Shown here piece by piece: positions 5,202-63,931 of a stretch of DNA of 64,000 bases (positions within the stretch are counted from its first letter, which is position 1; each line of letters opens with the position of its first letter). Below the pieces are notes generated by a model. That model did not search any database, was not told the origin of the DNA, and was given only the letters and a program-made list of their open reading frames with translations. This DNA comes from an uncultured Armatimonadetes bacterium (lineage in GTDB: Bacteria; Armatimonadota; UBA5829; DTJY01), in assembly GCA_963717145.1 (NCBI GenBank), contig OY970325.1:4416001-4480000 (forward strand), in the 5' to 3' direction. Made by a program: the position numbers and the translations under genes.

Positions 5202-5318
5202 GTCCGTACCTCTGTGCTCTCAGCACAGCCGATTATACTCCGCCTGACGATGCGCGATCAACACCACATATCTGCGAGCAGGGCTGAGCGCCCTGGTTGG
5301 CGAAAGAAACAGAGGGAG

Positions 5319-34706: not shown

Positions 34707-35798
34707 TCACTTAGCCGCCCTCATGATAAGAAATGCGCCTACGACCGCGCAGGCGGCTGTCGGTGCGAAACTTGCGAGAACCGGCGAGACCGCTCCGTTT
34801 CGCCCCAGGATGGTCATGTAGTGCATGAGTATCCAGTACGCGAAGATGATCACGATCGAGAGCCCGAGGCCCGTCGCCGAGCTGCTTCGATGCGGTCGAA
34901 GGCCGAGCGGCGCGCCGATCAGCGCGAAGACGAGAGTAGTGAGCGGCATCGCGATCTTCTGGTAGAGGCTGACCTCGAACGCCGCCACGTCGGTTCCCTG
35001 CTGGGTGAGCATGTTGATGTAGCTCCTGAGTTGTCGGAAGCTCATCTCGTTGTCCCTTTTCTGGAAGAGCGCGATCTGCTCGGGCGTCTTGTCGATCCGA
35101 GTCTGGCGGGCCTGAGTGCCTCGGAACTCGGTCACCCAGGTCGGCTTGGTGCCCAGCGTCTTGATGTACCCGTCCCTGAACTCCCAATTATTCGTGCCGA
35201 GCCATTTCGCCTGCTCACCATAGATAAAAGCCGTCGGTTTGTTGCCAACATACTGAGTCAGCGCGACCCTCCGAAGCGTGCCGGTGGATAGATCGAATCC
35301 TCCCTGCACGAAGAAAACGCTGTTCGTCACGCCATTGTCCGCATCTATCACGAAGAACGGCTTGTCGCTCGACAACGGCTCATTCTTGATCTCCTGTAGG
35401 ATCTGCTGGTGCCGGTGCGTTGCAGAAGGCGCTACATACTCGTTCAGCACGAAGCTCGCGGCCGTGACCACGACTGCCATCACGATCACCGGCAGCACGA
35501 TCCGGTACATGCTGACTCCGCCTGCGAAGAGCGCAACCGTCTCACTGTCGCTGGAGAGCCTGCCGAACCCGAGCAGGGTCGCCAGCAGCATCGACATCGG
35601 CAGAGTGACCACCACGAGCGCCGGGAGGTTCAACGCGACCAGTTCGCCCGCTCGCCAGACCGATGCGTGGTATTCGGCGAGAAGCTCGGTTATCTGGAAC
35701 AGCTCCTTGCCGGCGAACATCAGGCTGGTGAACGCGGCAACGCCGAATACGAACGGGCCGACCAACTCGGTAAGGATGTGGCGGTCGAGTATCTTCAT
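34707..35798 (-). CDS. LptF/LptG family LPS export permease
   Basis: MKILDRHI, GRLSSDSE..AL..GGVS, KIAMP...LVFALIGAPLG. Confidence 0.9.
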   Translation of the reverse strand: MKILDRHILTELVGPFVFGVAAFTSLMFAGKELFQITELLAEYHASVWRAGELVALNLPALVVVTLPMSMLLATLLGFGRLSSDSETVALFAGGVSMYRIVLPVIVMAVVVTAASFVLNEYVAPSATHRHQQILQEIKNEPLSSDKPFFVIDADNGVTNSVFFVQGGFDLSTGTLRRVALTQYVGNKPTAFIYGEQAKWLGTNNWEFRDGYIKTLGTKPTWVTEFRGTQARQTRIDKTPEQIALFQKRDNEMSFRQLRSYINMLTQQGTDVAAFEVSLYQKIAMPLTTLVFALIGAPLGLRPHRSSSATGLGLSIVIIFAYWILMHYMTILGRNGAVSPVLASFAPTAACAVVGAFLIMRAAK

Positions 35799-35944: not shown

Positions 35945-36676
35945 TCATACCTCGAATCGGTCGCCGAGGTAATACTTGCGGGCTATCGGATCGTTCGGAA
36001 GCTCCGAGGACACGCCGGAGGTCCTCACCTTACCGTCCGAAATGATGTACGCCCGGTCGGTGATCGCAAGGGTCTCGCGAACGTTGTGATCCGTGATGAG
36101 GATGCCGATGTTCTTCGCCTTCAACTCCCCGATGATGTCCTGGATGTCGTTGATGGCGATCGGGTCGACCCCTGTGAACGGCTCGTCGAGGAGCATGAAC
36201 GCCGGGGACATCGCGAGAGTGCGCGCGATCTCCGCCCGGCGGCGCTCTCCGCCGGAAAGCATGTACCCCTTGTGATCCTTGACGTGTCGGATACGCAGTT
36301 CGTCGAGCAGCTCATCGAGTCGCGCCCAGCGCTCCTTCTTCGGCATTCCGGCGAGTTCGAGCACCAGCAGGATGTTCTCCGACACGGTCAACTTGCGGAA
36401 TACAGATGCCTCCTGCGCGAGATAGCCGATTCCGTGACGCGCGCGCTGATACATCGGCATGCCGGTGATCTCACGGCCATCGAGGAACACCTTGCCGGAC
36501 TCCGGGCGAACGAGGCCGACGATCATATAGAAGGTCGTCGTCTTGCCCGCGCCGTTAGGTCCGAGCAGGCCGACGATCTCACCGCGCTTGATGTCGAGCG
36601 ATACATCGTCGACTACGCGCCGACCCTTGTAGGTCTTGACGAGGCTCTCGGTGGTGATCTGCGTCTCGGGTCCTAT
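35945..36676 (-). CDS. lptB: LPS export ABC transporter ATP-binding protein LptB (probable ATA start)
   Basis: Frame open upstream of ORF-track start with [11 protein letters not shown] and [40 protein letters not shown]. Confidence 0.92.
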
Positions 36677-37254
36677 TTTGTGGCCCCCTCTTTGGGTTTG
36701 ACCGAGAAGTCACCCTTCTTGACGCTAATCTTGGTCTTATTGAGGTAGATGGTGACGCTGCTGCCGGTGAGTGTCGCAGGCTGCTCCAGTTCCGGATCGA
36801 CCAGCTTGACGACCGCGTTCCCGGTGAGCACTATGTTCTCATCGTCCCCACTGGCCGCCGGAGTGAACACCGCTTTGTCCGCGGTCGCGTGGATGAACCT
36901 GGTGGTCTTCTTGGCCTTATCGACCTGCCTGGCATGGATCAGGACATCGGTGGTCGCGGTTGCCTTCGCGATGACGAGCTTCTTCTCGACCTTCTTCAGG
37001 TCCGCTGAGATCGTCTTGGCGGTAATGAGCGCATCCTGGATCGTCTTGCCGCAGATCTCGCATTTCCACGGCTCCCCGGTGAGTTCCAGAGTCGCGCCGT
37101 TTGTCAGATCGATCTTCTCGTCACTGATCTCCATGTCGCCCGCAAGTCGGATTCCGCCGACCGCCATGCTTGCCGCCGAGGTGAACCCGACGTAGACGAA
37201 GAGCGCGCCGATGATAGCGGCGAGAGCGAGTGTCTTCTTCAAATCTTTCCTCAC
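36673..37254 (-). CDS. LptA/OstA-like periplasmic protein
   Basis: Signal peptide, beta-jellyroll pattern ([23 protein letters not shown]), between lptC and lptB. Confidence 0.7.
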
Positions 37255-37826
37255 AGGATCGCCTCCGCGTCGCTGAGCTTTGCTTTCGTAAGCGCCGTGT
37301 CAGTCGTGATGCTCTGCGCCCGGATATGAATGCTTCCCTTGTCCATGCGCACCCCGCCCGTCCCGACGATCTTGTCCTCGCGGGGCATCCAGATCATCTG
37401 ATCGGCGCTGGCGGTGGAGCCATCCGCGAGCGAAGTCACCTTCACGCCGCCGAAAGCCCGGACTTCCTTCTTGGCGCTGTCCGCCACGACCTTCGGCGCG
37501 ACCATCCGGCTCGCGACCTTTCCGTCTTTATACAGACTGGCCGTGACATCGGTGAGTTCCACCCGCGCGGATCCCCCGGCCTCGTCGGCCGTAGCCGATT
37601 TGAAGCCGGCTTCCCAGAGCCGCTTGCCCTGGTCGTCGTCCCACGTGACCTTGGCGCCTTCGAACTTGGCCTCGGTCCTCGTTCGGTCGGGCGACGGCTT
37701 CTCTGTGAGCGTCCGAGCAGGGCTCTGCTTCGGAGGCGGCTTATGCCCACATCCGGCGGGAAGAATCGCTATGCAAACTGCTATGTGAATAAGCCGGGAG
37801 ATCGTCCCGGCCCGTCGAATAGGCAT
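37251..37826 (-). CDS. lptC: LptC-like LPS export protein
   Basis: Lipoprotein-like N-terminus, G.RLWE, ADQMIW, G.GGV motifs; operon position. Confidence 0.7.
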   Translation of the reverse strand: MPIRRAGTISRLIHIAVCIAILPAGCGHKPPPKQSPARTLTEKPSPDRTRTEAKFEGAKVTWDDDQGKRLWEAGFKSATADEAGGSARVELTDVTASLYKDGKVASRMVAPKVVADSAKKEVRAFGGVKVTSLADGSTASADQMIWMPREDKIVGTGGVRMDKGSIHIRAQSITTDTALTKAKLSDAEAIL

Positions 37827-39112: not shown

Positions 39113-40935
39113 GTGGGCAGATACATCATATTTGCAGCGATGGCGATACTGATGACAACGCCGGTTCTCGGACAAACGCAGACGAGCTACGACGTAGTAA
39201 TCGTCGGGGGGACACCTGGCGGAATCATGTCCGCCATCGCCGCCGCCCGAAACGGCTGTTCGGCGGTGATCCTGGAGCGACGCGCCCACATCGGCGGGCT
39301 TCCGGCCAACGGCCTCGGCGCGACTGATATCGCGACGCGCGGAGCGACCGGCGGCCTGTTTGCCGATTTCGTGGGCCGAGTCCGGAAGCACTACGTCGAC
39401 ACCTATGGCGCGGACTCCAAGCAGGTGGTCGACTGTAGCGACGGATACCGGTTCGAGCCGCATGTGGGCGAGCAGGTTTTCGAAGACGATGCTGGAGGAG
39501 CACAAAGACCGCATCACCGTTCTGCGCCAACGTCAGTTCGATGCCGAGCCCGCGAACGTCGCTCTTGTGGACGGTGGCCTGACTCAGATCACCATCACGA
39601 ACCTTGAGACGAAGCAGCCGGAGTCGTACAGCGGCAAGGTTTTCATCGACGCCACGTACGAGGGCGACCTGGCCAGCCGCCGCCGGCGCCGATTTCCGAA
39701 TCGGGCGGGAGGGGCAGAGCGAGTTCGATGAGCCGATGGCCGGCAAGCTCTACAAGCAGTGGGCCGGACCGATCGGTCCGGGCTCGACGGGTCTCGGCGA
39801 CAATGCCGTGCAGGCGTACAATTATCGCCTGTGCCTCACCCGAGACCCGGAGAAGCGCGCTGCGATCACGAAACCGGCGACGTACAATCGGGACGAGTAC
39901 GTTTCGCTGATAGACGATGTAAAGCTCAACCGATTTCCCGCTCCAGCCGATTCCAACAGGGTTGCGATGGCGTGGGACGGCATCGGCCGGGTGACCAACA
40001 TGGTCCTGCTGCCCAATGGGAAGACTGACGGCAACAATCAACACGCCGCTTTCATCTCGACCGACCTGCCCGAGGAGAACTGGCCCTGGCCGACCGCCGG
40101 TTGGGATTGGCGCGACCGATTCGCCGGGCGTCTGAGGGACTACATCCTCGGCCTGCTCTGGTTCGCGCAGAACGATCACGGTCTGCCCGAGGACTACCGC
40201 TCGCGATGTCGGGAGTGGGGTCTGGCGAACGACGAGTATGTCGATAACGGCAACTTCCCCCGCCAGGCATACGTCCGCGAGGGCAGGCGGATCGTCGGAG
40301 AGCACCTGTTCACGGCGCACGATGCGCTTCCGGTCGAACAGGGCGCTCGACCGCCGGTGTATGCCGACAGCATCACCGCGAGCCACTACGCGCTCGATTC
40401 GCATGCGGTCCTGAAGCGCGAGCCGGGCAGGGCGCATCTCGACGGGTTCTTCAGCAAAGCGAGCGCGCCGTACACCGTGCCCTACGGGGTGATGATGCCG
40501 AAGAAGGTCGAGAACCTCTTGACGCCGGTGCCGGTGTCGGGGACGCATATCGGATTCAGCACCCTGCGCATGGAGCCGTGCTGGATGGCGCTCGGGGAGG
40601 CCGCCGGTACTGCGGCCGCAATCAGCGTAAGGGATTCCGTGACGCCGAGGAAGGTAGAGATCCGCAAGCTCCAGGAGAACCTGCTCGATCACGGCGCGGT
40701 GCTCATCTACTTCCGTGACGCATCGCCCGGCGATAAGCATTACAAGTCCCTGCAGATGCTTGCGCTCCGGGGCTTGTTTTCGGGCGAATGGAATGCTAAG
40801 CTGGGCGAGAAGATCGACGAGCAGACCGCCAACCGGTGGATCGAGAAGGCCGCAGCCGGTGCTCCAGAGGCGTACAAGTCGGGAGTCACCACCCGAGGCG
40901 AACTGCTCGAAATGATCCGCGGCGAAGACTACTAG
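39113..40935 (+). CDS. Secreted FAD-dependent oxidoreductase (two apparent +1 frameshifts near 39485 and 39675)
   Basis: Three ORF pieces join: VIVGGTPGG...FEPHV / FIDATYEGDL / GREG...QAYNYRLCL...YVREGRR...LRMEP. Confidence 0.85.
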
Positions 40936-43217: not shown

Positions 43218-45188
43218 CTACGCCCGGTCTGCTTTGCGCTTGGAAAGCTCTTCGACCTTCGCCTGGTACGCCATCACCGTCGTCACGAAGGCCGCGTGGC
43301 TCCACGTCAGGGGCATCACCGCGAGCGGATGACCGGTGAACGGGTGCACCTGCTCCGGAAGCAGCCCCGCCTCCGACGCATGACGCGTCGCCCAACGGAT
43401 CAGGTCCATCGCCGGCTCGAGGTCGCGGTAGCTCCGGGCCACCGCGATGTACCACTCCGCCATCCAGAGCGTCGAGATGAACCAGGGGTTTCCCGGCACG
43501 CGCTTTACGTCGTTGCTCGCCTGGAAGTAGTGGTCGTCCTCGTACCTGGCGATTCCTCCGACCGGGGAGCGGACCCACAGCCGGTCGTAGATCGCCTCCA
43601 TCGTGAACGCCACCCGCGGATCGTCCGGCGGGAGAAGCTCGAACAGGAAGAGCGCCGTCATGCTCGCGTCGATCGTCGGATCCTGGGCCAGGTCGGGGTC
43701 GATCAGACTGCGGACGAACCGGCCGTGCTCGGAGTCGAAGAACCGCTGGATGATCGACGCCTTGAGCCGATCTCTCGCCTCGGAGTACTTCTCCGCATTC
43801 TCCTTGTCGAAGATCCGCGCGAGCCGCGCCGCCCCGGAGAACGCCGCATAGACGGCGCAGCACGTGAACATATGGACGCCGCGCGTCTGCTCCCACAGGT
43901 CATAGCTCGGACGAGGGAGACCTGTCCGCTCGTCGATGCCGCCGATCATGTAGTCCACCGCCGGGACGACCAGGTCGCCGTAGATCGATTCCGTGAACTG
44001 TTTGTCCCGCCAGCGGTCGTAGTGCTTCCGTACCGCCCACAGCACGAGCGCGGTGCTGTCCTGCTGACACGGAACCTCCATGCTGTCGTCCGTGATCCAC
44101 GGATGCCACGTGGCCCCGACGTTCCCATCGGGCGAGTACTTCTGCAGGAAGTACGGACGGTGACGTGGCAGAATCCCGGCGCAGAATGAGAAGAACCGCC
44201 GCGCGGGCTCGGCGCATCCCGCGAGATCGAGCGCGCGAGCGGCAAATGCCCCGTCGCGCGGCCACACATAGCTGTAATGCGCCCGCGCGGTCTGCATGAT
44301 GTCCGTGTCGTTCGCGGCCAGTATCCCGCCCGATCGGTCCGCTTGCGTCATCAGCACGAGGAGGCTGCGCTCGTGCAATTCGGCTACCGACGCGGGCACG
44401 GGCGCATCGAGGGCCGTCCGTTTGCTCAGCCACGTCTTCCAGTGGTTCGCCGATTCCCCGAGCAGCGTCTCAAGCGGCGTCCCGACCGCCACTGTGTTCA
44501 GGTCCTCGACCTCCTCCAGTGTGCGGCCGACCGCGATCCAGTAGTCGAGAGTCGCGGTGCCGTCGCCAGGGACCGCCAGTCGGAAGCTCACTGTGCTGTC
44601 CACGGATCCCTGCTCGATCGGATGCATGCTGAGCGATCCGTCCTCGGCATCACGCCACGTTCCCTCCGCGCCGCCGAATTCCTTGACCCCGGCGGCATAC
44701 TCGAAGATGCCTCCGGTGGCGGTCCGGCCGTTGATCATGAGGTAGCAGTCGCGCTTGAAGTGTACCATCGAGCCGGTGAACGGGTGGAAGAAGGTGGTGT
44801 CGCCGATATCGGATTCCCCGATGCGGAAGTCATGGCCGAAGAAGAGCCTGATCTCGCGCTCATCGTGATGGAGGTTCTCGACGGTGACCCGTCGGACGAA
44901 GATGTTCATCTCGGGATGGACGGTATCGTTGAACCTGAGACCTATTCCGAGCCGGCCGTTCGACGCGTGGACGTCGGTCGTCAGCGTCCCGGGGAGGTAT
45001 CCCAGGCGGATCGACCACGTGTCCTCGAGCCACGCGAACTGCCCGCCGACCCAGACTCCGACCCTGTTCCGGTGTCCGCCGACGTGGTTGAACAGGCCGA
45101 CGTGCGGATAGTACAGGTCGCGTATGTTCAGGTTGCGGTCGATGTTGATCAGGAGCGATCCGTTCCCGACGACCAGATCCCTGGGCAT
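43218..45188 (-). CDS. Glycoside hydrolase family 15 (glucoamylase-like)
   Basis: YSYVWPRDG, YDLWE, GGIARYE.D.Y, LLPEQV, PLTWSHA. Confidence 0.92.
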   Translation of the reverse strand: MPRDLVVGNGSLLINIDRNLNIRDLYYPHVGLFNHVGGHRNRVGVWVGGQFAWLEDTWSIRLGYLPGTLTTDVHASNGRLGIGLRFNDTVHPEMNIFVRRVTVENLHHDEREIRLFFGHDFRIGESDIGDTTFFHPFTGSMVHFKRDCYLMINGRTATGGIFEYAAGVKEFGGAEGTWRDAEDGSLSMHPIEQGSVDSTVSFRLAVPGDGTATLDYWIAVGRTLEEVEDLNTVAVGTPLETLLGESANHWKTWLSKRTALDAPVPASVAELHERSLLVLMTQADRSGGILAANDTDIMQTARAHYSYVWPRDGAFAARALDLAGCAEPARRFFSFCAGILPRHRPYFLQKYSPDGNVGATWHPWITDDSMEVPCQQDSTALVLWAVRKHYDRWRDKQFTESIYGDLVVPAVDYMIGGIDERTGLPRPSYDLWEQTRGVHMFTCCAVYAAFSGAARLARIFDKENAEKYSEARDRLKASIIQRFFDSEHGRFVRSLIDPDLAQDPTIDASMTALFLFELLPPDDPRVAFTMEAIYDRLWVRSPVGGIARYEDDHYFQASNDVKRVPGNPWFISTLWMAEWYIAVARSYRDLEPAMDLIRWATRHASEAGLLPEQVHPFTGHPLAVMPLTWSHAAFVTTVMAYQAKVEELSKRKADRA

Positions 45189-45258
45189 TGTTCGTCCTCC
45201 CCTAATCATACTTCGGTGGATTGGCCGAGCACGGTTACTGTGAACAATACCGGGAGTC

Positions 45259-47741: not shown

Positions 47742-47900
47742 CAGTCTGTTATCATATACAAGGCTCGCTTCGCGTCTTTCCGTGCAGGTATCGGTTTTCC
47801 AGACGATGGGTCGGGAATGTGGTAGCAGTTGACCCCGATCCGAGGAACGCCTCACCGGAGTGAGGCGGATCTGCGCGCGGCTCGAAGAAGAGGTGTGTCC

Positions 47901-50900
47901 GTGGATGGACAACGCACGCTCGCGAGACTATTTCCCGCAATCATACTGGCGTTCATAGTTGCGGCACTTCCTGTCCTGGCGGGACCGGAGCCGGAATCCC
48001 GACAAAGGATGCACCGCCCGATTATGCGACCGACCACATAATCGTGAAGTTCGCATCCACTCCGGCCGTCGCCCAGGGTCTGAATGGCAACGTGACGACC
48101 AGAATCGCACCGGTGGACAAGCTCAACGTCAGGTTCGGCGTGAAGAGCATGAAGCCGGTGTTTCGTCGCGCCTCCCACGGGAAAGCCCTCCCGAACGGCC
48201 ACGCGAAGAAGTTCGACCGGATCTACACGGTCTCGTTCTCCAAGAAAGCCGATCCCCGCGTCGTCGCCGGTGAGTATTCCAAGCTGCCCGAGGTCGAATA
48301 CGCCGAGCCCGACTATATTCGCCACACGTTCCGAACCGACCCGAACGACCCGTACTGGCTTTCCAACAACTCCTGGGCACAGAACTACCGCGACCAGTGG
48401 GACATGGAGATCATGAAGTGCCCGGAGGCGTGGGACCTCACGACGGGCGCCCGAGCGTCATCATCGCGGTAATCGACACCGGCATAGACTACGACCACGC
48501 CGATATCGCCGCTAATATGTGGGCCAACCCCACCGAGATCCCGGGCAACGGACTCGACGACGACAGCAACGGCCGGATCGACGATGTCCGCGGCTACGAT
48601 TTCGCCTACAAAGACGGCAACCCGATGGATGGCAACGGTCACGGCACACACGTGGCGGGTACCATCGGCGCTGTAGGGAATAACGGCATCGGCATCGCGG
48701 GTGTGAACTGGAACTGCAAGCTGATGGCCGTGAAGGCACTCGACGATTCCGGAAGCGGTTACGACTCCGACCTCGCCGATGCGATCACGTATGCAGCGGA
48801 TGAGGGCGCCCAGATCATCAACATGAGCTGGGGCGGCCCCGGATTCTCCCAGACGGTTCATGCCGCCCTCGAGTATGCCCACGGTCTGGGAGTGATCCTC
48901 TGCGCCGCCGCCGGAAACTCATCGAGCGACATTGCGAGTTTCCATCCCGCGAGCGACAATAACGTCATAACGGTCACCGCCAGCGATACGACCGACGGGG
49001 CATGCTCGTTTACCAACTGGGGCATCAAAGCCGCGGTCTCCGCCCCGGGCGGGAACGGATCGACCGCACCTCCGCCATGCGCCGTGCACAACTGCCTGTC
49101 GCTCCGTGCAGGGACGACCGATGCACTCGCGGGTGACTGCGGGGCGGGCGTCGGAGTGGTTGGCGGCAACTACTACAGGCTCGCCGGCACATCGATGGCT
49201 TGTCCGCACGTGGCAGGACTCGCGGGCCTGGTGAAAGCCGCCCATCCCTCGTGGACGAACGAACAGGTCAGGCAAGCGATCCAGATGCGCGCCGATGACA
49301 TCCTCGCGCCCGGCTTCGACAAGTACGCCGGCTTTGGGCGCATCAATGCCAAGACCACGCTCACCTCGGCCGAACCGATGACGGCCTTCATAGAATCGCC
49401 GAACAGCGGGGCGGAAGTCTCCGGTGTCGCAGCTATTCGGGGCACTGCGGCCGGGAACAACCTTTCGCAGTGGACTCTCGATTTCGGTTTCGGGCATGAG
49501 CCGACCACATGGACCACCATCGGCACCGGACTATCGTCGGTCGTGAACGGCACACTTGCCAACTGGGACGTCACCGGCATTCCCGGCGGGCTGTACACGC
49601 TGCGTCTGAGGGTCACCGGTATCGGCATGCAGAATGCCGAGTACCGCATGTCGATCACCCCGAAGTCCACGGAGGGCTCCGGCCATTTCACGGAGCTGTT
49701 CGACAGCGCTCCGTTCGATCTGGCCTACAAGTCGCTCGAGTTCATCCCGGACGGCTCGGACGAATTCTACTCCATGTGCGTCAGACCGATAGCGCAACTG
49801 CCAACGAGTCCCAGCGGCGGCTCGACTCTGGCGCTCCTCGACGATGATTCCGTCCTGGTATCGCTCGCATCCGGAGCACAGGTGTCGCTCTATGGGAACG
49901 TCCGGAGTCAGTTCTACGTCGGCAGCAACGGTTACATCACCTTCGATTCGGGCGACAACAGCTACTCCGAGACCCTCAGTAACCAGTTCAGCATGAAGCG
50001 CATCTCCGCCCTGTTCGACGACCTCATACGCGGAGCCGGCAGCGTGACCTGGAGACAACTGGCTGACCATGCGGCCGTGACCTTTGTGAGCGTGTCGGAA
50101 TATGGCGCCACCACGCAGAACACGTTCCAGATCGAGCTGTTCTTTGACGGGCGAATAGTTCTGTCGTACCTGAACATCGCCGCCTCCGATGGACTTGTCG
50201 GGCTGTCTGCGGGACTGGGCGTACCGTCGGGTTTCGTCGAGAGCGATCTGTCTGGCTATCCGCAGTGCGTGATAGCCGGCCGAGCCTTGTCGCTCGTCAA
50301 GCCGAACGGTGGTGAATGCTACGAGCCGGGAAGCACAGCACGGATCCTGTGGGCCCCCACCGGGAGCAGTTGGTCGCCCAGCGATATGGTTCGAATCGAG
50401 TGTTCACCCGATTCAGGATCCTCATGGTCGCCTGTCCCAGGCGCCGGAAGTCTGGCATACAACGCGGGGTACTTCGACTGGCTGACCTCGGGATGCCCTC
50501 AGTCCACGCACTACCGGATCAGGATCACCTTCAACGGCGATGACGCTGTCAGAGACGCTTCCAATGGTGACTTCACGGTTGGCCCGGACACGATCCCCCC
50601 TGTCATCTCGCACACACCGCTGGTCGACACGTCGCGCGCCACCGGATCGTACGACGTTTACGCCGATGTCACGGATAACCTTGGAGTTGCATCGGCGACT
50701 CTGTATTGGAACAAGAACGATGGGTCGTTCACTGCAGTCGTGATGAATCCGTCGGGCGGGACAGGGCGATATGTAGGCAGCATCCCCGGCCCCAGCGTCG
50801 TCGGCGACAGGTACTGCTACTACATCGAGGCCACGGATTCGTCGCTGGCCCACAATGTCGGCAGGCTACCCACGCAACTGGGCCAGACGTTCTGTTTCTC

Positions 50901-53900
50901 GATCATCCAGCAGGTAGACTACTATGCCCAGGCGTTCATAAGCGAGCCGTTCGATCTGCAGAACACGAGCATAGAGTTCATCCCTGACGGCTCGAACAGC
51001 TTCTATGCGGCTTGCGCTCATCCGATATCGCAACTGCCGACGGATCCCGCCGCCGGCGCGCTCGTACCGCTCGGCGACGACAACTTCATCCAGATCAACC
51101 TGATGTACGGCGAGACGGTGTCGCTCTATGGGGAAGCATACAGCGGGTTCTATGTCGGCAGCAATGGATTTGTCACCTTTGAACAGGGTGACCCCGGCTG
51201 GAACGGCGCGCTCTTCGAACACTTTGCCTTCAAACGGATTTCCGCTCTGTTTACCGACTTGTATCCCAGCGACAACGTCACCAGTGCCCAAATGCCGGAT
51301 CGCATTGCGGTTACCTTTGACGGAGTTCGCCAGTACGGCGTGGCCAATGTCAACACGTTCCAGATCGAGATGTTCTTCGACGGCAGGATAACGCTGTCAT
51401 ACCTCACAGTCGAGTCGGATGCAGGGGTGGTCGGCCTGTCCGCCGGGCTCGGCATGCCGGAAGACTACGTCGGGAGCGATCTGTCCGCTTACCCGTGTGG
51501 TCCCAGGCTGACCGTAGTGAGACCGGACGGCGGTGAGTTCTATGAGCCTGGAGATATAGCCACGATAGCCTGGACGGCGGTAGGGAGCGACTGGCAGGGG
51601 GATGATACGGTCAGATTGGAAGCCTCTGCGGATAGTGGCGCCAACTGGATACAGATACCTGGAGCGGAGAGCTTGGCCTATGATGGCGGCTCGTTTGGCT
51701 GGAATACGTCAGGTTGGGCTATGTCGTCACGCTACAGGATCATGGTCATCGCAAACAGGGATTCCGCCATCAACGACGCGTCCGATGGCGACTTCTCGAT
51801 CGCGGTAGATAATGCTCCACCGGTGATCACCCATACGCCGCTCTCCGACACCAATGATGCGGAAGGCCCGTACAGAATCGGCGCCACAGTCACAGACAAC
51901 CTTGGGGTCGCATCAGTGATCCTTTACTGGAGCAGGAACGGCGGGTCCTTTACCCCGTCTGCCATGGTCCCGGCGGGGGTTAACGACGAGTACTGGGGCG
52001 ACATACCGGGTCCGAGCGCGAACTGCACCGACGGCTACTGCTACTACATGGTGGCGACAGACGCTGCCGGCATTCCTAACGCAACCCGGAGCCCAGCGTC
52101 AGGCGAGTACTGCTTCAACGTCGCAGGCCCTACCCTCGACGTGTCAACGAGTTCGATGATGTTCGGACTGCCGCCGAATGGTACCGGCAGTGAGGATATC
52201 ACTCTTACCAACAATGGCTGTGTGCCTCTCGAGTGGCAGATCATGGAGAGGGCCGCTTCCTCCTCAGTCCTATTCGAGCCGTATGCGGGTCAGACCGCCG
52301 AGCAGCGCCCGCCGGTAAACTGGTCTGCGCCACACGTCCCTGGTCGTCTGATTGTCGGCATCAAGCCCGAAGTGCAGGCCGCGGAACGTGCCGCTGTTCA
52401 CGCTCAGGCCGGGGCCAAAGCCATCCAGCGATTCGAGTTCATATCGGCGGATGTCGTGAAGGTGGATCTTGGCGACGATCTCAAGACCGTGGCCGCGAGG
52501 TATGCCGCCATGCCGGGGGTGATATATGTCGAGCCGGATTACATGGTGTCGGCCAGCGGGGTACCGAACGACCCGCTGTTCACCGATCAGTGGGGACTGC
52601 TCAACACTGGTCAGGCGGTCGGCACGCCTGATGCGGACATCGATGCTACGGATGCCTGGGACATAACCACCGACAGCCCGAGTGTCGTGGTCGCAGTTAT
52701 CGACAGTGGCGTCTGTTACACTCACCCGGACCTCGCTGCCAACATGTGGACGAACCCGGGCGAGATCCCCGGCAATGGCGTGGATGACGACGGAAACGGC
52801 CTGGTGGACGATGTCTACGGCTATGACTACGCAAACAGTGATGGCAACCCTATGGATGATTATGGGCACGGCACTCATGTGGCCGGAATCATCGGCGCCG
52901 TGGGCGATAACGGGATAGGCGTCGCCGGCCTGAGCTGGAACGTAAAGATAATGGCCCTCAAGTTCCTCGAATCAGATGGGCAGGGCGCAACGTCGAAAGC
53001 GATAAGCTGCATCCAGTACGCAATCAGCAAGGATGTTACCCTTTCCTGCAACTCCTGGGGCGGCAGTGAATACTCGACGGCGCTCTACAATGCCATCGAA
53101 GCGGCGCGGACCGCCGGACAGCTATTCGTCGCGGCCGCGGGTAACGCAGGCGTGAATAATGATGCGTCAGCGAACTACCCCAGCAGCTACAGCCATCCGA
53201 ATATCATCTCCGTCGCAGCCACTGATCGCAATGACAATCTGGCAGTATGGTCCACCGGCGGCGGGTCGAACTGGGGACTGAATACCGTCGATATCGCTGC
53301 TCCGGGCTTGGACATTATGAGCACGGTGCCGGTGGCCAACTATGAGAGCTGGAGCGGCACTTCGATGTCCGCTCCTTATGTGGCAGGAGCGTGCGCCCTG
53401 TGCATCGCTGCGAATCCCGATGCGACTCATGAGCAGATCAAGCACTGGATATTGACCGGAGCGGAACCGAAGCCTGCACTCGCAGGGAAGATGGTCACGG
53501 GCGGACGACTCAACGTGCACAACTCGGTGGTTCTTGCAGGGATCTCATGGCTCGACGAGACTCCTAAGCGTGGGGAGATACCTCCAGGAGAGAGCAGGGT
53601 CGTCACCGTGTCCGCCGATGCCGCAGGACTTGACGACGGCTTCATGGAGACAGCCAGGATTGCGATCGCGAGCAACGATTTCGCGCATCCCACGACCTTG
53701 ATATCCGTCACCTTGAACGTCGTGCGGGCAGGACGCTTCATTCGACTGGATTCCCCGAACGGTGGCGAATGGTACGAGCCGGGGACGGTTGTCAGTGTCA
53801 ACTGGACGCCGATAGGGACCGACTGGCAATACTCGGATCCGGTGAGGATCGATTGGTCCGCGGACAGCGGCCTGACCTGGTCACTGGTTCCCGGATCAGA

Positions 53901-56900
53901 GTATATGTACTGTCTCGACGGCACATTCGCTTGGAATACGACCGGTTTCCCGCCGTCTTCGAAGTATCGGCTACGGGTCGTGTTTCCGAACGACGAGGGC
54001 ATATACGATGGCTCCGATGCCGATTTCTCCGTTGCCGCGGACACGACCCCGCCCCTGATCACTCATTCGCCGCTGCCTGATAGCGGCGACATGTCCGGCC
54101 CATATACTGTGTACGCGGGCGTTACGGATAACTACGCTGTCGGCAACGTGACGCTCTTCTGGAGTAGAAACGGAGGCTCCTTTGCGGCGGTTCCAATGGT
54201 TGCCACTGAGACCCCCGGCCAATTCTCGGGTCAGATTCCCGGCCCGAGCACTGATGGTGATCGGTACTGCTACTACATCAGGGCTGTTGATGCTTCGACG
54301 GCACTCAACGCGGCCACGGATCCGGCCGGCGCCCCGGCTCAGACCTACTGCTTCATCACCCGCACTGTCATCAACTTGCCGGTCAACTTGACGGATGGTG
54401 GTGGCTTCCGGTGGGATATCCAGCAGAACGGCAGCATTCTGGACGGAAGCAGCGACGCATTCGATAGCGGATTCGTTCTCTCCGGCTTCCCGAATGTCTC
54501 GACTGGTGGCTTGGAGGATGGAGGTAGAGAGGTTCTGATCAGCAATGGAGCCACCACGGGCATCCAGGTCAGTCGCAAGATCTACGTTCCGACCGGCAAT
54601 GCATACTGCCGGTTCCTCGAGATCGTCCGGAACCTCGGCGAGACGGCGTCAACACATACTGTGCGCTTGGACACGAATCTCGGATCGGATGCCGCAACCG
54701 TGGTTGCCGGGACTTCCGATGGCGATAGCACATTTGAGACGACCGATCAGTGGATCGTAACGGATGACACCCTCGAAGGCTCGGGTGACCCCGTCGTTAC
54801 GCATGTGATCGGGGGCGCCGGAGCCGTTCAGTCTCCGAGCCAGGTTTCCTTCACACCCGGATTCGTCGGGTATATCTACGATCTGGTGCTGGAGCCGCAG
54901 GAGACCAAGATCATAATGCACTTCGGTGTGCAGGGACAGAGCAGGACTGCCGCTCTCGGCAAAGCCGATCAGATTGCCGGCCTCGCCACTGCGCAGGAGT
55001 GTCTGATGGGAATGACCGTAGATGAGCGCGCGCATGTCGTGAACTTCACGATAATAGGTCGTTCACTGCGCATACTCAGCCCGAACGGTGGCGAGTGGTA
55101 TGAGCCGGGCAGTCCTCTGGCGATCACCTGGGCTACTGCCGGAAGTGACTGGCAGACCGGCGACACGGTGAAACTCGAATCGTCGTCGGACGGTGGCGCG
55201 ACGTGGGCTCCGATCCCGGGTGCGAGCGCGCTGGCGTACAATACCGGCTCGTTCGGTTGGAACACTACCGGCGTCATCTCGTCGGATCGCTACCGAGTCA
55301 GGGTCACGTGGAACGGCGGCAGTGAGATTACCGATGCCTCCGACAGCAACTTCGTGGTATCACAGGACAATCTCTCGCCGTTGATCACTCACACGCCGCT
55401 TGTCGATAACAACAATCTCCCCGGCCCGTATCGGGTCTGCGCCGTTGTCACCGATAAGCTCGGAGTAGCCGGTGTGACACTATACTGGAGTAAGAACGGC
55501 GGCGGGTTTGCCTCCACGCCCATGACCCCTTCAGGTCAGTCGAATGAGTACTGCGCCGATATCCCCGGCCCGAGCGTCGATGGCGATCGGTACTGCTACT
55601 ACATACGCGCCATCGATGGCTCCGTGGCAGGGAACGTATCCGTCAGTCCGAACGGCGCTCCGGCTCAGACACACTGCTTCACCGTATGCCACGTAGTCAG
55701 CCTGCCGATCAACCTGAACGATAGCGAGAGCTTCCTGTGGGATATCCAACAGAATGGAAGCATCCTCATCGGCTCGAACGACGCATTTGATGGTGCATTC
55801 GTCCTGAATGGCTTTGCCAACCAGCCGACCGGTCGCGCGGAGGATGGTGACCGCGAGATAACCATCAACGACGGCGCGAGTTCCGGCATACAGATCACTC
55901 GCAAGGTCTACGTGCCTTCCGATCGGGCCTACGCTCGTTTCCTCGAGATTGTAACCAATGACAGCAGCACTCCCGCTGTGCGCACGGTGAGGATAGACAC
56001 GAATCTGGGATCAGATACCGAGACGGTCGTCGTCGGTACCTCGGACGGGGATACGACCCTCGAGACGACCGACCAGTGGATCGTGACTGACGACGCCGAC
56101 GGCACGGGTGATCCGACGATCACGCATGTCATCGCCGGCATGGCGGCTCCTCAGTCGCCGAGTACGGTGAACCGCAGCGGTGACACCATGCGCTATGAAT
56201 ACGTCCTGAACCTCGCTCCCAATGAGACGAAGATCGTGATGCACTTCGGCGTACAGAGCCCGAATCGGGCATCAGCCCTGGCAAAGGCGTCCCAGTTGGC
56301 GCTTGTGGATGCGTCTCAGAATTCACTGTTTGGCATGACGACCGCAGAGCGCTCGCAGGTGGTGAACTTCGTCACCAGCGGAATGTACCTGCGAGTGAAC
56401 CAGCCGAACGGTGGGGAGAGCTACATCATTGGCGACATTGTGCCCATTCGGTGGGATGCCGTCGGACTGGATTGGAAGTCGGGTGATACAGTGCGGATCG
56501 ACTCCTCGCCGGACAACGGCACGACCTGGATCCCGATCGCCGGAGCCGGAAGCCTGGCATACAATACCGGTTTGTTCAACTGGAATACCACCAGCGTCAC
56601 TCCGTCGAACTCCTATCGGGTCAGGGTCGTCCGGAATGGCGATGCGACCGTGAACGACTCGTCGGACGCCGGGTTCAGGATTGCCGCCGTCCGGGGAACG
56701 CGTGACTGCAAGCTGTATCCCGACGGAGTCCCGGTGGTGTTGAACGCGAAACGCACCAGCGCAGTGTTCGCAGACGGCCTCTACATTCAGGAGGAGGATC
56801 GGTCGTCCGGCATCGGAGTCCTGTATGACGGCCCGACGCCGGCGCTGGGCGATCTTGCGACTGTGAGGGGCCTGATGGTCACGATGGACGGAGAGCGCAT

Positions 56901-57303
56901 GATAGCCGCCGACACGGTGACGTGGACCGATCCCGATGCTCTCGTGCCGATCCCGATCGGTATGAACAATCGAGAGGTCGGTGGCTCCGCGCTTGACTAT
57001 CAGCTCGGTCCACCACCGACCGGGCAGAAAGGCCTCCTCGGTAAGGCCGGCCTGAACAACATCGGCCTGCTGGTCAAGACCTGGGGCAGGGTGACCTCCG
57101 TGGACGGCGCGCCGACGTTCATCACAATCACGGATGGCTCCGGCGAGTTGATGGTCGATCTGGTGGCCGGAGCGACCGTCCCCGCTGTCGATGACAAGGT
57201 GAGCGTGATCGGTATCAGTTCGTGCTATGCGGTTGGCGGAGACCTGTATTCGAAGATCAGGCTTCGGGATGTCGCCGGCCTGGTCATCCAGACCGGGCCG
57301 TAG
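47901..57303 (+). CDS. Giant secreted double S8 (subtilase) protease with repeated accessory domains, ~3,100 aa (frameshifts near 48005 and 48450)
   Basis: Signal peptide (47901 frame), prodomain (48044 frame), then two full triads VIDTG/HGTHVAG/GTSMA and VIDSG/HGTHVAG/GTSMS; PNGGE Ig-like repeats; two NIDO-like domains; C-terminal GLNNIGLLVKTWG module. Confidence 0.9.
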
Positions 57304-57306
57304 GTC

Positions 57307-57338
57307 GGTGAACGGTGATCGGTGAACGGTGAACAGTG
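57307..57338. repeat. Heptamer tandem repeat (GGTGAAC)n
   Basis: GGTGAAC GGTGATC GGTGAAC GGTGAAC AGTG. Confidence 0.7.
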
Positions 57339-57446
57339 CAGGACCGTCCTTGCACTGTGTTGGATATCCCACCACAAGGAAATGCCCGGCTGCCCGTTGA
57401 AGAAGTAGGGGGCACACGACCGAGTCCGCAGTCTCCCGAGGTTTCA

Positions 57447-58889
57447 ATGCGCGCACTGGAGCAGTTCTCATTCCTCTTCTCCCAGGACGGCGGGTATCTG
57501 CGCATCCCTATCTGGGGGCATATCCCGCTCAGCCATTCCGCACGCCGGATCATAGGGCACCCCGACTTCGTCAGGCTTCAGAGGATCCGGCAGCTCGGCT
57601 TTGTGAATGATGTCTTCCCCGGGGCGTCACACACTCGCTTCGAGCATTCGATCGGGACATATCATCTGTCGGTCCTGATTCTTCAGAGGCTCGTGTTGAA
57701 CCCGTCCAACTGGCGAAACGAAAGCGATCCCTGCATCAGCCCGGAGGACGCGCGACTGTTCCTGGCGGCGGCACTGCTCCACGACATCGGGCACTATCCG
57801 TTCGCGCATCTGGTGGATACTCTTCCGAGTACGAGTATGAGTATGAGTATGAGTAGGAGTAGGAGTGAGAGCAAGGCGTTCGCGTCGCACGAGGACCGGG
57901 CGACGGAGTACATCGGTGGCGATCGGTCGGCGGGCAGCATATACTCGATCCTCAGAGATGAATGGGGGATCGGCGACCCGGCGCAGGTGGCGCGGATCAT
58001 CGCCGAGCCGGAGGACTCGGGCCTTCCCGGCCGGATGCTGAGCGGGATCCTCGACCCGGACAAGATGGACTACCTGATGCGCGACGCGTGGGCGTGCGGC
58101 GTCCCATACGGCAACATAGACACCGACCGGCTGATCGAATCCCTCGTTCTCGACCTCGATGGACCGAATCAACGTCTCGGGATCACCGAGAAAGGCATCG
58201 CGCCGCTCGAAAGCCTTGTGTTCGCCAAGTACATGATGTTCCGCCACATCTACTGGCACCACGCCGTCCGGATCGCCGTCGCCATGTTCACTCGCTTCGT
58301 CCAGGACGCGCTCGATGCAGGGGAGGTAGACCCCTCGCGATTCTATGAGCTGTCCGATGACGCCCTGATCGAGGAACTGGCGTCCACAGCGGATCGGGTG
58401 ATCTCCGGCGATCTGCTCATCAGGGTCAGGACCCGCGACCTGTACAAGCGCGGGTTCACGCTCTACCCCGAGCATCCCGCCGGCGAGGAGGAGTTCGCCC
58501 TCTCGCAGGACGAGATGGAGCGCGTGAAGGAGCTGTACCGGCATCCGGAGCAGCGCCGGGAGCGGGAGATCGCCGTCTGCCGCCTGCTCAGCGAGCGAGA
58601 GGGGCTCGATCTGGCCGGGTTCGAGGTCCTGCTCGACATCCCGCGGCTCGCAAGTGTGTTCGACGTGGATGATTTCCGCGACTTGCGCGTCCTCGTGACA
58701 CCCCAGACCGGCGGCGAAGGGCGGTTCGTGCCATTCAACTCGTTCGGGTTCACGCTCCTGACCGCCGACTTCGCCCAGGAGTTCGAGCGCTACAGCCGCC
58801 GCCTGCAGGTGATCTGTCGACCGGACCTCCGCGATGCTCTCCGCCGTCACTGGCGCGAGGTGAAGGCAGCGGTCGTGGGGAATGGTTGA
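57447..58889 (+). CDS. HD-domain phosphohydrolase (SAMHD1/dNTPase-like)
   Basis: RLQRIRQLG, HTRFEHSIG, LLHDIGH, LDPDKMDYL.RD, IYWHH. Confidence 0.9.
   Translation: MRALEQFSFLFSQDGGYLRIPIWGHIPLSHSARRIIGHPDFVRLQRIRQLGFVNDVFPGASHTRFEHSIGTYHLSVLILQRLVLNPSNWRNESDPCISPEDARLFLAAALLHDIGHYPFAHLVDTLPSTSMSMSMSRSRSESKAFASHEDRATEYIGGDRSAGSIYSILRDEWGIGDPAQVARIIAEPEDSGLPGRMLSGILDPDKMDYLMRDAWACGVPYGNIDTDRLIESLVLDLDGPNQRLGITEKGIAPLESLVFAKYMMFRHIYWHHAVRIAVAMFTRFVQDALDAGEVDPSRFYELSDDALIEELASTADRVISGDLLIRVRTRDLYKRGFTLYPEHPAGEEEFALSQDEMERVKELYRHPEQRREREIAVCRLLSEREGLDLAGFEVLLDIPRLASVFDVDDFRDLRVLVTPQTGGEGRFVPFNSFGFTLLTADFAQEFERYSRRLQVICRPDLRDALRRHWREVKAAVVGNG
57826..57868 (+). repeat. In-frame hexamer repeat (GAGTAN)7 within HD gene
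   Basis: Encodes STSMSMSMSRSRS. Confidence 0.85.
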
Positions 58890-58899
58890 TGGAGGTCTT

Positions 58900-59000
58900 G
58901 GGTTGTAGGTTGTAGGTTATGGGTTACGGGTTACGGGTTACGGGTTACGGGGATACCCAGAACCTACAACCCCAAAACCCATAACCTGGAACCCACAACG
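58900..59000. repeat. Inverted heptamer arrays between convergent genes
   Basis: (GGGTTAC/AGGTTGT)n facing (..AACC.)n. Confidence 0.8.
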
Positions 59001-59006
59001 TGACAC

Positions 59007-60914
59007 CTAAGGAACGATCTTCCGCACATCCTCCGGCCTGCGGGTGAGGATGCGGCGTGCCGTCCCGGAAGGCGTCCAGAGGCAGGAACTGATGCCGGTG
59101 ACCTCGACCTTCTCGCCGCTGGAGTACCCCGCCGGGTCGCAGATCACCCGCACCCCGAGGTTCTCCGTCTCGCCGGTCGAAGTCCCATCCCTCAGCCTCG
59201 ACCCGTCGTCGATGTACAGATATCCCTCTCCTACCTGGGTCACCGATCCCCACGTGCGGACGAACAGTCCGATGTTGTTGAGCCCCAATGCGCCGAAGAT
59301 GCCTGCCTGTCCCCCGCCCGTGCCCGGATCAAAGGGCACTCCACCTATAGTCCGGTTGTTCAGTCCCACGGGCCTCAGAGGCAGGCTGTCTATGCGTCTG
59401 ACGTTCGACGCATTGATATAGCGCTCGCCGTTGTCATCTGTGGCCAGAGTCCCGTCAACGTGATACCGGTCACCCTCGGTGACCGGGTTGCCCCACAGGA
59501 CCTTGATGCCGGTGGATCTATCCGCATCCTCTGCGTAGAAAAGGCCGGGCAGCGCGCAGGTGGCCGTATTGCCTGAGAGGGTTGCCCCAATCCCGTCCGA
59601 CAGGGCCTTCGTGCGGGCCAGGCCCCACCTGTCGCGCACGAAGACGCCCCATGCCCCGTTCGTGTCGCCGGGAACCAGGTAGGAGGCGTCGGATTCGAAC
59701 GCCACGTACCGCCCGTCCGCGCTGATGGCGGGTACTCTGCTGTCCCCGTTCCCCTGCGTCCCGCCGCTCGACACGGAGACCCTCTCGGTGACGCCGGTCT
59801 GCCGGTGGCGCACGAAGATGTCGGATGTCCCGTTCGTGTCGCCGGGGACCAGGTTGGAGGCATAGGACGAGAGCGCCACGTACCGCCCGTCCCCGCTGAT
59901 CGAGGGCGCGTAGCTGATCGAGTTCCCCTGCGTCCCATCGCTCGATACGGAGACTCTCTCGGTAACGCCGGTCTGCTGGTCGCGCACGAAGACGTCGTAT
60001 GTCCCGTTCGTGTCGCCGGGGACCAGGTTGGAGGCATAGGACATGAACGCCACGTACCGCCCGTCCGCGCTGATGGCGGGGTGCTGGCTGTTGTTCTTCC
60101 CCTGCGTCCCGCCGCTCGACACGGAGACCCTCTCGGTGACGCCGGTCTGCCGGTCATGCACAAACACGTCATATGATATGTTGGTGTCGCCGGGGACCAG
60201 GTTGGTGGCCCGGGACTCGAACGCCACGTACCGCCCGTCCGCGCTGATGAAGGGATAGTAGCTGTACTGGTTCCCCTGCGCACCGTCACTGGACACGGAG
60301 ACCCTCTCTGTGACACCGGTCTGTCGGTCGTGGACGAAGATGTCATTACTGCCGTTCGTGTCGCCGGGGACCAGGTTGGTGGCATCTGACTCGAACGCCA
60401 CATACCGCCCGTCCGCGCTGATGGAGGGCTCATAGCTCCTGCCGTTCCCGTGCGCGCCGTCGCTCGACACGGACACCACCTCGATGGCGCCGGTCTGCCG
60501 GTCGCGCACGAAGATGTCCCTCCGTTCGTGCCGCCGGGAACGAGGTTCGTAATAAAGGAGAGGAACGCCACGAACCGCCCGTCCGCGCTGATGGCGGGCT
60601 CATAGCTGGTGTTGTTCCCCTGCGCGCCATCGCTCGGGCACCGATACCCTCTCGGTAACGCCGGTCTGTCGGTCGCATACGAAGACATCTGATAGGTTGT
60701 TGTTGTCCCCGGGGGCCAGGTTGGGGGCATCGCTGTGGAACGCCACGAACCGCCCGTCCGCGCTGATGCGAGAGTGGCAGCCAATGATGTTCGCCTGCGG
60801 GCCGTCGTCTATCACGGAGACACAGGTAGTGACGCCGGCGTGGGCATGAGAGAAGGCGAGCGCGAGAATGCACACGCATACTAGGATGGGAAAGAACCTG
60901 CCGCTCGAACGCAT
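59007..60914 (-). CDS. Secreted TolB/PD40-like beta-propeller repeat protein with shared C-terminal module (frameshifts near 60635 and 60518)
   Basis: Seven ISADGRYVAF.S.A.NLVPGDTN repeats across three frames; signal peptide; GLNNIGLFVRTWG module. Confidence 0.85.
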
Positions 60915-60994
60915 GTTATTACTCCTTGCCTGGCCGCACATGGCAGTGCGGTCGGAGATAAGTCATGCCGGGTCGGAGGTGCTGACCCAACACC

Positions 60995-62850: not shown

Positions 62851-62863
62851 CAACCAGCCACGC

Positions 62864-62959
62864 GATGCTTCGGTAGCAGAGGCCTGGCGGCGCTGCCGAT
62901 GCATGTCACGGCACCACGGTGCATCGGCAGCGCCGCCAGGCCTCTGCTACCGAAGCATC
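62864..62959. repeat. Inverted REP pair upstream of RAYT
   Basis: GATGCTTCGGTAGCAGAGGCCTGGCGGCGCTGCCGATGCA and its reverse complement. Confidence 0.9.
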
Positions 62960-62975
62960 TGGAGGGGCGGTACAT

Positions 62976-63455
62976 ATGAGCAGATGGCACAACAACTATG
63001 TAGACGGGTATGCTCACTTCTGCACGTTCACGGTGCGGGCCTGGAAGCCACTGCTCGTTGGCAAGGCCGTAGATACGCTCTACGATGAGTGGACGAAGGC
63101 AAGCGCCAGGTTCTCCGTGAGCATACTTGCCTACGTGATCATGCCTGAGCATGTGCATGTGCTCTTGTGGTCGCCCCTGGGGAGAAACATAACCGTGTTC
63201 CTTCAGCGCACATTGGGAGAGATGTCCAAGCGGCTCTGTCCTGGTGAAGGCGGAATGTGGAAAGAGAGGCCGAGGGTCTTCCCCGTCTACTCCGAGTCGG
63301 TGATCAAGGAGAAAGTGGAGTACATCCATCGCAACCCTGTGAGACGAGGGCTTGTAGATGATGCGAGCGCGTGGCCACACTCGAGCTTACGGCAGTTGGC
63401 AACAGGGGACACAGAGGTACCATTTCTCTGCGATGCATTCCCTTCGCCCAAATGA
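62976..63455 (+). mobile_element. REP-associated tyrosine transposase (RAYT, Y1 HUH family)
   Basis: HFCTF, YVIMPEHVHVLL (HUH), YIHRNPVRRGLV, WPHSS; REPs on both sides. Confidence 0.92.
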
Positions 63456-63465
63456 TCCGTGAGGC

Positions 63466-63846
63466 GATGCTTCGGTAGCAGAGGCTTGGCGGCGCTGCCG
63501 AAGGCTACCGTCACAAGGCCGATGCTTCGGCAGCGCCGCCAAGCCTCTGCTACCGAAGCATCTAGAAAACACACCGATCGAGTGCGCGACCGATGCATCG
63601 GCAGCGCCGCCGAGCCTCTGCTACCGAAGCATCTAGAAAACACGCCGATCTACTGCGCGACCGATGCATCGGCAGCGCCGCCAAGCCTCTGCTACCGAAG
63701 CATCTAGAAAACACACAGATCGAGTGCGCGACCGATGGATCGGCAGCGCCGCCAGGCCTCTGCTACCGAAGCATCTAGAAAACACACCGATCGACTGCGC
63801 GACCGATGCATCGGCAGCGCCGCCAAGCCTCTGCTACCGAAGCATC
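63466..63846. repeat. REP array: one inverted copy + five tandem copies at exact 71-bp period
   Basis: 42-bp unit starts at 63521, 63592, 63663, 63734, 63805; near-identical 29-bp linkers. Confidence 0.95.
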
Positions 63847-63931
63847 GGGTGGTCCCTGGGCTTTGTGAGAGGATAAGCCTCCATAACATGGAACAATACA
63901 TCGGGCGCACCTGCCCAGGGAGGATTTGCTC

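Follow-up and report, generated by a model that had tools for sequence, protein, structure and literature searches.

A predicted tandem OB-fold module on many unrelated secreted proteins of Armatimonadota, a possible extracellular tether

What do two otherwise unrelated secreted proteins gain by ending in the same domain of about 200 amino acids (aa)? The question is raised by a 64,000-nucleotide stretch of DNA from an uncultured Armatimonadetes bacterium (assembly GCA_963717145.1, contig OY970325.1, positions 4,416,001 to 4,480,000 of the forward strand; hereafter the window), in which a giant subtilase-type protease and a PD40-repeat beta-propeller protein carry a common C-terminal module. 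A first-pass annotation, made from the letters alone, had proposed an undescribed export or surface-attachment tag, probably composed of tandem folds of the oligonucleotide/oligosaccharide-binding (OB) type. We find that the two tails are homologous, that they belong to a large family with a predicted duplicated OB architecture, and that this family is appended to secreted proteins of many kinds in Armatimonadota; we tentatively propose that it tethers them to a shared extracellular polymer. The features on which the argument draws are as follows, in window coordinates.

56695..57300, plus strand: module copy 1, 202 aa, at the end of the protease (stop codon 57301-57303).
~56716-56934, ~56935-57054 and ~57055-57294, plus strand: predicted OB barrel 1, Gly/Asn-rich linker and predicted OB barrel 2 of copy 1.
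59010..59621, minus strand: module copy 2, 204 aa, at the end of the propeller protein (stop codon 59007-59009).
~59385-59591, ~59265-59384 and ~59019-59264, minus strand: predicted OB barrel 1, linker and predicted OB barrel 2 of copy 2.
47895..57303, plus strand: giant secreted double-subtilase gene, ~3,135 aa if read through, composed of the main open reading frame (ORF) 48397..57303 plus upstream frames.
47895..47984, plus strand: signal-peptide-like N-terminus of the protease, from a GTG start aligned with the Met of an orthologue at another locus (L001), within the stop-to-stop frame 47826..48041.
59007..60941, minus strand: secreted PD40-repeat beta-propeller gene with terminal module, ~640 aa if read through (ORFs 60600..60941, 59390..60784 and 59007..60509).
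60834..60914, minus strand: signal-peptide-like N-terminus of the propeller protein, counted from the second ATG of ORF 60600..60941.

The two tails share 70 identities over 184 aligned positions (38%, 87.4 bits, E 6e-26, BLASTP), and every motif that the first-pass annotation had listed is visible in the alignment: K..DG, Y..E/D.DRS.GI.V, GER, NNR..GG, GLNNIGL.V.TWG.VT, DGS and KV.V.GISSC. Searched against the whole window (tblastn), each tail recovers only itself and the other tail (E ~1e-22), the next best match having E 0.27. Ahead of them stand unrelated passengers, Peptidase_S8 in two stretches (Pfam, E 9.6e-114) in the 2,968-aa main ORF of the protease, and PD40 in five stretches (Pfam, E 4.7e-22) in the propeller protein. 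Signals of the PEP-CTERM or LPXTG type place a short motif, then a hydrophobic helix and finally a basic tail at the end of the protein, and the window tails have no such signal: both proteins end 2-4 residues past the module, with no hydrophobic stretch and, as had been stated, no PEP-CTERM-like tail, and NCBIfam returns nothing for them at E <= 1. Two further descriptions of the pair hold in part. The genes do face each other, as claimed, but they are not neighbours, being separated by a gene with Pfam HD and HD_assoc_2 domains (57336..58889, plus strand); and both do have signal-peptide-like starts, judged by eye from the hydropathy of a hydrophobic core, but in frames other than those of the main ORFs.

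This second qualification follows from two frame breaks in the 5' part of each module gene, at ~47985-48010 and 48447-48455 in the protease and at ~60636-60638 (a C run) and 60518-60520 (a G run) in the propeller. Signal-peptide-like start, propeptide and main ORF of the protease consequently occupy different frames, of which the first two align with the N-terminus of the L001 orthologue, a single intact ORF of 3,181 aa with ~70% identity. Because short C or G runs can accommodate three of the four breaks and this orthologue is intact, the breaks look like assembly indels, with recent pseudogenisation as the alternative explanation of the sequence. The long ORFs downstream of the breaks remain open, and a FAD_oxidored gene elsewhere in the window is likewise split (39113-39604 / 39604-40932).

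The predicted fold agrees with the earlier guess of tandem OB-like domains. AlphaFold2 models of copy 1 (20-row alignment; predicted local distance difference test score, pLDDT, 91.7; predicted template modelling score, pTM, 0.88) and of copy 2 (40-row alignment; pLDDT 95.3, pTM 0.91) are confident, and in both of them two blocks of 5-6 strands are separated by a less regular segment of ~40 residues. Foldseek searches of the PDB with either model place tandem-OB proteins on top, namely HIN-200 domains, including that of p202 (4jbm), and the single-stranded DNA-binding protein (SSB) of Deinococcus/Thermus, at E 8e-5 to 1e-3, with probabilities of 0.94-1.0 for OB proteins and whole-module template modelling (TM) scores of 0.25-0.42 (0.30-0.42 for HIN-200). 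On these models the module would belong to the OB-fold superfamily, defined by a five-stranded closed barrel. A search against viral models (BFVD) gave only generic OB proteins (SSB, LEF-3) at TM <0.4 and was uninformative. When the columns of barrel 1 are compared with those of barrel 2 across 235 aligned instances, hhalign matches them with a probability of 95.4% (E 1.8e-8 over 48 columns); the module is the product of a duplication of one OB domain.

The closest neighbour of barrel 1, both at the sequence level and as a single-domain structure, is the BOF family (PF04076), represented by the single OB domain of Escherichia coli YgiW (1nnx; Foldseek TMt 0.63, root-mean-square deviation 2.8 over 81 columns, 27% identity). 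YgiW is also first when a profile of the module is run against PDB sequences (E 0.026-0.036); that search gave otherwise a marginal match to an RPA14-type OB domain, and none to HIN-200 at the sequence level. Both BOF proteins and the module are exported OB folds, but a BOF protein is a single small stand-alone protein, whereas the module is a duplicated appendage on enzymes, and BOF matches to it are sub-threshold only. To our knowledge the ligand of BOF is, like that of the module, still to be described.

No Pfam-A or NCBIfam family is reached at threshold by either tail, nor in Pfam by 20 and then 40 members scanned singly. Such sub-threshold Pfam matches as occur are all to OB families, with BOF in 3 of the 40 members (best E 0.021), RMI2 in 3 and tRNA_anti-codon in 2; neither window tail matches BOF, whose gathering threshold is not reached. 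Nor do the tails or the scanned members match SLH (PF00395) or dockerin (PF00404), the tails match Por_Secre_tail in neither Pfam nor NCBIfam, and DUF5689 (PF18942) is found in 0 of 40 members at E <= 10 (hmmscan). Full-text literature searches, whose coverage excluded subscription journals and supplements, gave no description of such a domain. The OB fold itself is already known, as is, in general terms, the sharing of one accessory module among exoproteins; what is new is a duplicated-OB appendage across the exoproteome of a phylum, unnamed as far as these searches show.

The family is abundant. When 1.84 billion representatives of 50% identity clusters were searched exhaustively with a profile, there were 5,240 matches at E <= 1e-3, 4,101 at <= 1e-10 and 1,723 at <= 1e-30; the profile took in ~60 flanking positions, so that the weakest matches may owe something to the flanks, while the 150 matches listed fit module positions. 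A word-indexed search for longer proteins recovered 65 homologues among 6,009 candidates, and one at similar length 24 among 413. Across 235 instances the near-invariant positions are the Tyr and the Arg/Gly of the Y..E.DRS.GI.V hairpin, the GG and NN of the linker, the Gly of TWG, the DG of DDGS and the G.S of GISSC, and the Glu of GER is present in 100%. The cysteine of GISSC was considered for a catalytic or covalent role and rejected, being present in only 80% of these instances and so not essential. The module is acidic (median isoelectric point, pI, 5.0; mean net charge -4.8; 81% of the 235 instances net negative), and its conserved linker is Gly/Asn-rich without conserved basic residues.

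One relative of copy 2 is a mosaic. The 191-aa protein P0068, probably a third module copy of the same genome, is 85% identical (73/86) to barrel 2 of copy 2 (59019-59264, minus strand) and only 40% identical (41/102) to its barrel 1 and linker, a pattern that suggests recombination or conversion between paralogous tails.

The taxonomic range appears narrow. The RuvB sequence places the window itself in Armatimonadota: named matches of 79-88% identity all bear that name, and other phyla (Dehalococcoidia, Dormibacteraeota, Eremiobacteraeota) come in only at 71% and lower. A genome scan by one peptide pattern returned 355 stretches, of which 339 were confirmed, and the best 80 of these 339 fall into 79 loci of 29 assemblies: 19 of the 29 are named Armatimonadota or Armatimonadetes, 10 are named only "uncultured bacterium" or "bacterium", and none carries the name of another phylum. 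The source names of the 65 longer homologues are all Armatimonadota. Among the named genome matches seen, the module is therefore lineage-restricted, and it is often present many times over, with two to seven modules within ~20 kb at 26 of the 79 loci and at least 17 module-bearing ORFs, counted from 8 loci, in one metagenome-assembled genome (MAG; prefix JAXGLP).

All 220 homologues that were fetched carry the module, 214 of them over at least 60% of its length; in 182 of these 214 no more than 30 aa separate the last copy from the C-terminus, and in 32 the distance is greater. Many of the 220 are metagenome fragments, and the count was repeated on genomic stop-to-stop ORFs, where the module is within 30 aa of the end in 89 of 121, followed by more than 30 aa in 32 and by more than 100 aa in 16. 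The C-terminal position noticed in the window thus holds for 74-85% of the cases counted. Even so, there is no conserved extreme C-terminal signal, since the stop follows 0-8 residues past the domain and only 52 of 182 proteins end in Pro. One copy is present in 191 of the 220 proteins, two in 20 and three in 3, so that 23 have two or three copies in tandem. Regions of ~200 aa that follow non-terminal modules were considered as degenerate module copies and rejected as families of their own, the exception being one truncated second copy in P0172. Pfam domains after the module were found in 5 of 12 scanned proteins (FGE-sulfatase, PQQ propeller, RHS repeats and CarboxypepD_reg), and in the FGE-sulfatase protein the module stands directly behind the signal peptide, ahead of the catalytic domain. 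At the other extreme, small proteins of 262-302 aa have just 60-100 aa between signal peptide and module, and Pfam recognises no further domain in them.

The passengers are correspondingly diverse. According to precomputed Pfam lists, the 65 longer homologues include peptidases (S8, C1, M4 and reprolysin-like), beta-helix lyases, GH20, propellers of the BNR/sortilin, PQQ, RCC1 and SMP-30 types, legume lectin, amidase_3, CBM_4_9, RHS and FGE-sulfatase, and SLH, dockerin or Por_Secre_tail domains occur in none of the 65. By a crude hydropathy measure, 128 of 163 proteins with a Met start and more than 150 aa before the module have a signal-peptide-like N-terminus, and the remaining 35 may be fragments. 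A single apparent cytoplasmic passenger, P0084 (247 aa, a radical-SAM N-terminus joined to only the second OB), was set aside as a probable assembly chimera, being one sequence on a 1,617-bp contig. In sum, the domain is not rare, is biased to C-termini, rides on secreted carriers and is uncharacterised, and in these respects the proposal of the first-pass annotation stands; as a strict export or sorting tag it does not, given that the module also stands at the N-terminus, inside proteins, in tandem or nearly by itself, and that more than 100 aa follow it in 16 ORFs.

What remains of the earlier idea is surface attachment or anchoring, which would be its best reading. We favour, tentatively and at slightly less than even confidence, a position-tolerant ligand-binding tether, similar in logic to SLH domains, dockerins or carbohydrate-binding modules, that would hold exoproteins on a common extracellular polymer. 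The tandem-OB domain would fold autonomously and be non-catalytic, and Armatimonadota would append it, usually C-terminally, to many proteins exported by the Sec pathway; after export it would tether proteases, glycosidases, lyases, propellers and others to one common polymer, with tandem copies raising avidity. The likeliest target would be a glycan belonging to the envelope or matrix of the producing cell, with extracellular DNA as the main alternative ligand. Binding as such, the nature of the ligand and retention as the outcome are all inferred. A binding or retention module is preferred to a terminal sorting signal because some carriers have the module N-terminally, internally, in tandem or almost alone, and a target common to all carriers is preferred to a substrate because the passengers are not of one enzyme class. 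The many paralogues, often clustered, and the absence of any SLH, dockerin or Por_Secre_tail anchor from the 65 homologues also support a tether.

Several observations weigh against this proposal. The C-terminal bias is stronger than would be expected of an ordinary carbohydrate-binding module, and most members may yet act as a terminal signal. The structural neighbours all bind nucleic acid or have no known ligand, and none binds glycan; moreover, the whole-module TM-scores are low and support the fold class only. No conserved neighbouring partner gene was found across the 79 loci. Finally, both window genes are broken in frame, so that their full-length expression is assumed.

A more elaborate form of the tether is that the module is the feature by which an undescribed surface-display pathway, specific to Armatimonadota, recognises the proteins that carry it, with a dedicated envelope receptor or polymer and possibly a dedicated outer-membrane route. 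We regard this as unlikely, though not negligible, and hold with equal reserve that such a pathway would be the functional counterpart of SLH domains with their secondary cell wall polymers (SCWP), of cohesin-dockerin pairs or of the C-terminal domain (CTD) of the type IX secretion system (T9SS), built on a different fold. The analogy lies in distribution: like SLH domains, dockerins and T9SS C-terminal domains, the module is one domain found on dozens of unrelated exoproteins per genome, mostly terminal and, among the named matches, lineage-restricted. In fold and size, by contrast, those domains are entirely different from a tandem OB of ~200 aa. The T9SS domain is known as strictly C-terminal, and here too the module differs, since it also occurs internally, N-terminally and in tandem, with the 32 of 121 ORFs noted above extending more than 30 aa beyond it.

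The window encodes, all on the minus strand, a protein with an N-terminal SLH domain (30451-32310), LptF/G (34710-35798), an LptB-like ABC ATPase (35948-36526) and an LptC-like protein (37254-37826), and because of these genes its sequence points to a diderm organism with lipopolysaccharide (LPS) export. Large exoproteins would then have to cross an outer membrane, and this lends some interest to a rival explanation in which the module is a C-terminal sorting or secretion domain for a lineage-specific outer-membrane translocon or attachment enzyme, and is afterwards removed or covalently linked. Such a role would accord with the position of most copies, ending 0-8 residues before the stop in a strongly biased family (182/214 proteins, 89/121 ORFs), and with dozens of phylum-restricted paralogues, among named matches, on unrelated passengers in a genome. 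We nonetheless consider it quite unlikely: several proteins carry the module ahead of a catalytic domain, 16 of 121 ORFs continue for more than 100 aa beyond it, and 23 of 220 proteins have it in two or three tandem copies; neither a conserved terminal motif (Pro last in 52/182) nor a conserved translocon or sortase-like neighbour gene was found; and the sorting signals known to us are much smaller than ~200 aa.

To a similar degree improbable is extracellular nucleic-acid binding, whereby the tandem OB would tether exoenzymes to matrix DNA. The best PDB fold matches are DNA binders, and the HIN-200 proteins (p202, AIM2, IFI16) and the Deinococcus/Thermus SSB likewise place two OB barrels in a unit of ~200 aa. 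These are, however, cytosolic DNA binders with basic surfaces, whereas the module is secreted and acidic, and the likeness amounts only to TM 0.25-0.42 at ~10-17% identity; since most tandem-OB structures in the PDB bind DNA, fold matches of this kind are expected whatever the ligand. A second line comes from extracellular OB-type domains. An ESM Atlas feature search (score 0.94) places both tails near clusters with 22% DUF5689 or 10% tRNA_anti-codon OB members, a family lead that is weak by the Atlas's own warning. The AlphaFold model of DdbD, a DUF5689 surface protein of Bacteroides DNA-utilisation loci, is reported to resemble the same p202 structure, 4jbm (10.1101/2025.03.18.642099); natural transformation of Riemerella requires a DUF5689 protein (PMC8459023), and an OB fold is present in Xds, an extracellular nuclease (PMC6746945). 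DdbD and the OB folds of Xds/ExeM resemble the module in being extracellular OB-type domains, and DdbD, according to that report, shares the 4JBM likeness, but their context is a TonB-transporter partner or a nuclease, while the module is a general appendage on many enzyme classes. Against a DNA ligand stand also the median pI of 5.0 with 81% of 235 instances net negative, the linker devoid of conserved basic residues, and the 0 of 40 members that match DUF5689 at E <= 10.

Carbohydrate-binding modules typically show the positional freedom and tandem copies that disfavour a sorting signal, some OB folds bind oligosaccharides, and many passengers are glycoside hydrolases or beta-helix lyases, all of which would suit a substrate-targeting module directed at an environmental polysaccharide and not at the producer's own surface. 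This we judge distinctly improbable. The same module is found on peptidases, on PD40, PQQ and RCC1 propellers and on FGE-sulfatase-like, RHS and amidase proteins, which have no common substrate, and it is absent from glycoside hydrolases of the window itself, namely GH123 (3300-5201, minus strand), GH10 with a CarboxypepD_reg fragment (5109-6587, plus strand) and GH15 (43221-45209, minus strand). A cleaved C-terminal pro-domain or folding aid, comparable to the PPC domains of secreted proteases, would fit the mostly C-terminal position and the several large peptidases among the passengers, but peptidases are a minority of the passengers, the module also occurs in tandem, N-terminally and nearly alone, and Pfam gives no PPC match, so that we consider it very improbable.

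Among the individual carriers, the protease of the window is itself unusual, in that its passenger (48397-56694, plus strand) contains a complete S8 catalytic domain twice over, and the second of the two has a prodomain to itself. The protein is organised as signal peptide, propeptide, first S8 domain, long internal repeats, a second Fervidolysin-type prodomain, second S8 domain, more repeats and the C-terminal module; the inner prodomain is matched by Pfam as Fervidolysin_NPro-like at residues 1305-1381, and the repeats between and after the two S8 domains are ~95, 190 and 300 aa long. In the nearest relative seen, L001, the orthologous protease (~70%) is followed by an HD gene with 83% identity, with no propeller or ProS within 10 kb. 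The pairing of protease and HD gene is therefore conserved there, and that of the two module genes is not.

More broadly, clustering of 913 selected ORFs from the 79 loci gave a single neighbour family present in ten or more assemblies, a prepilin-type N_methyl/DUF1559-like family whose 15 genes occur at 14 of the 79 loci and come from 10 of the 29 assemblies (e.g. L067:6477-7496). We do not count this as an association with the module, as there is no genomic background rate and the figure may reflect family size alone. Elsewhere in the window, an array of ~40-nt palindromic repeats at 62858-63873 flanks an ORF at 62919-63452, with five units at 71-nt spacing (63519-63873) and inverted pairs at 62864-62959 and 63466-63562. 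A match of this ORF to the IS200-like Y1_Tnp falls below threshold (E 3.5e-4; 21.1 bits where 23 are required), and array and ORF together resemble, in sequence, a repetitive extragenic palindromic (REP) element with a REP-associated tyrosine transposase (RAYT).

Armatimonadota are common in soils, digesters and groundwater and have barely been studied experimentally. Against that background, a large part of their secreted hydrolases bears one and the same unnamed domain, with 5,240 clusters in all and at least 17 genes in one MAG, and naming the family would improve the annotation of thousands of "hypothetical" C-termini and provide a simple marker for the exoproteome of the phylum. The module also bears on the means by which a diderm that lacks T9SS retains very large enzymes at the cell surface or within the matrix. 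If its ligand does prove to be a lineage-specific envelope polymer, the module would be a ready-made affinity handle for these uncultured cells.

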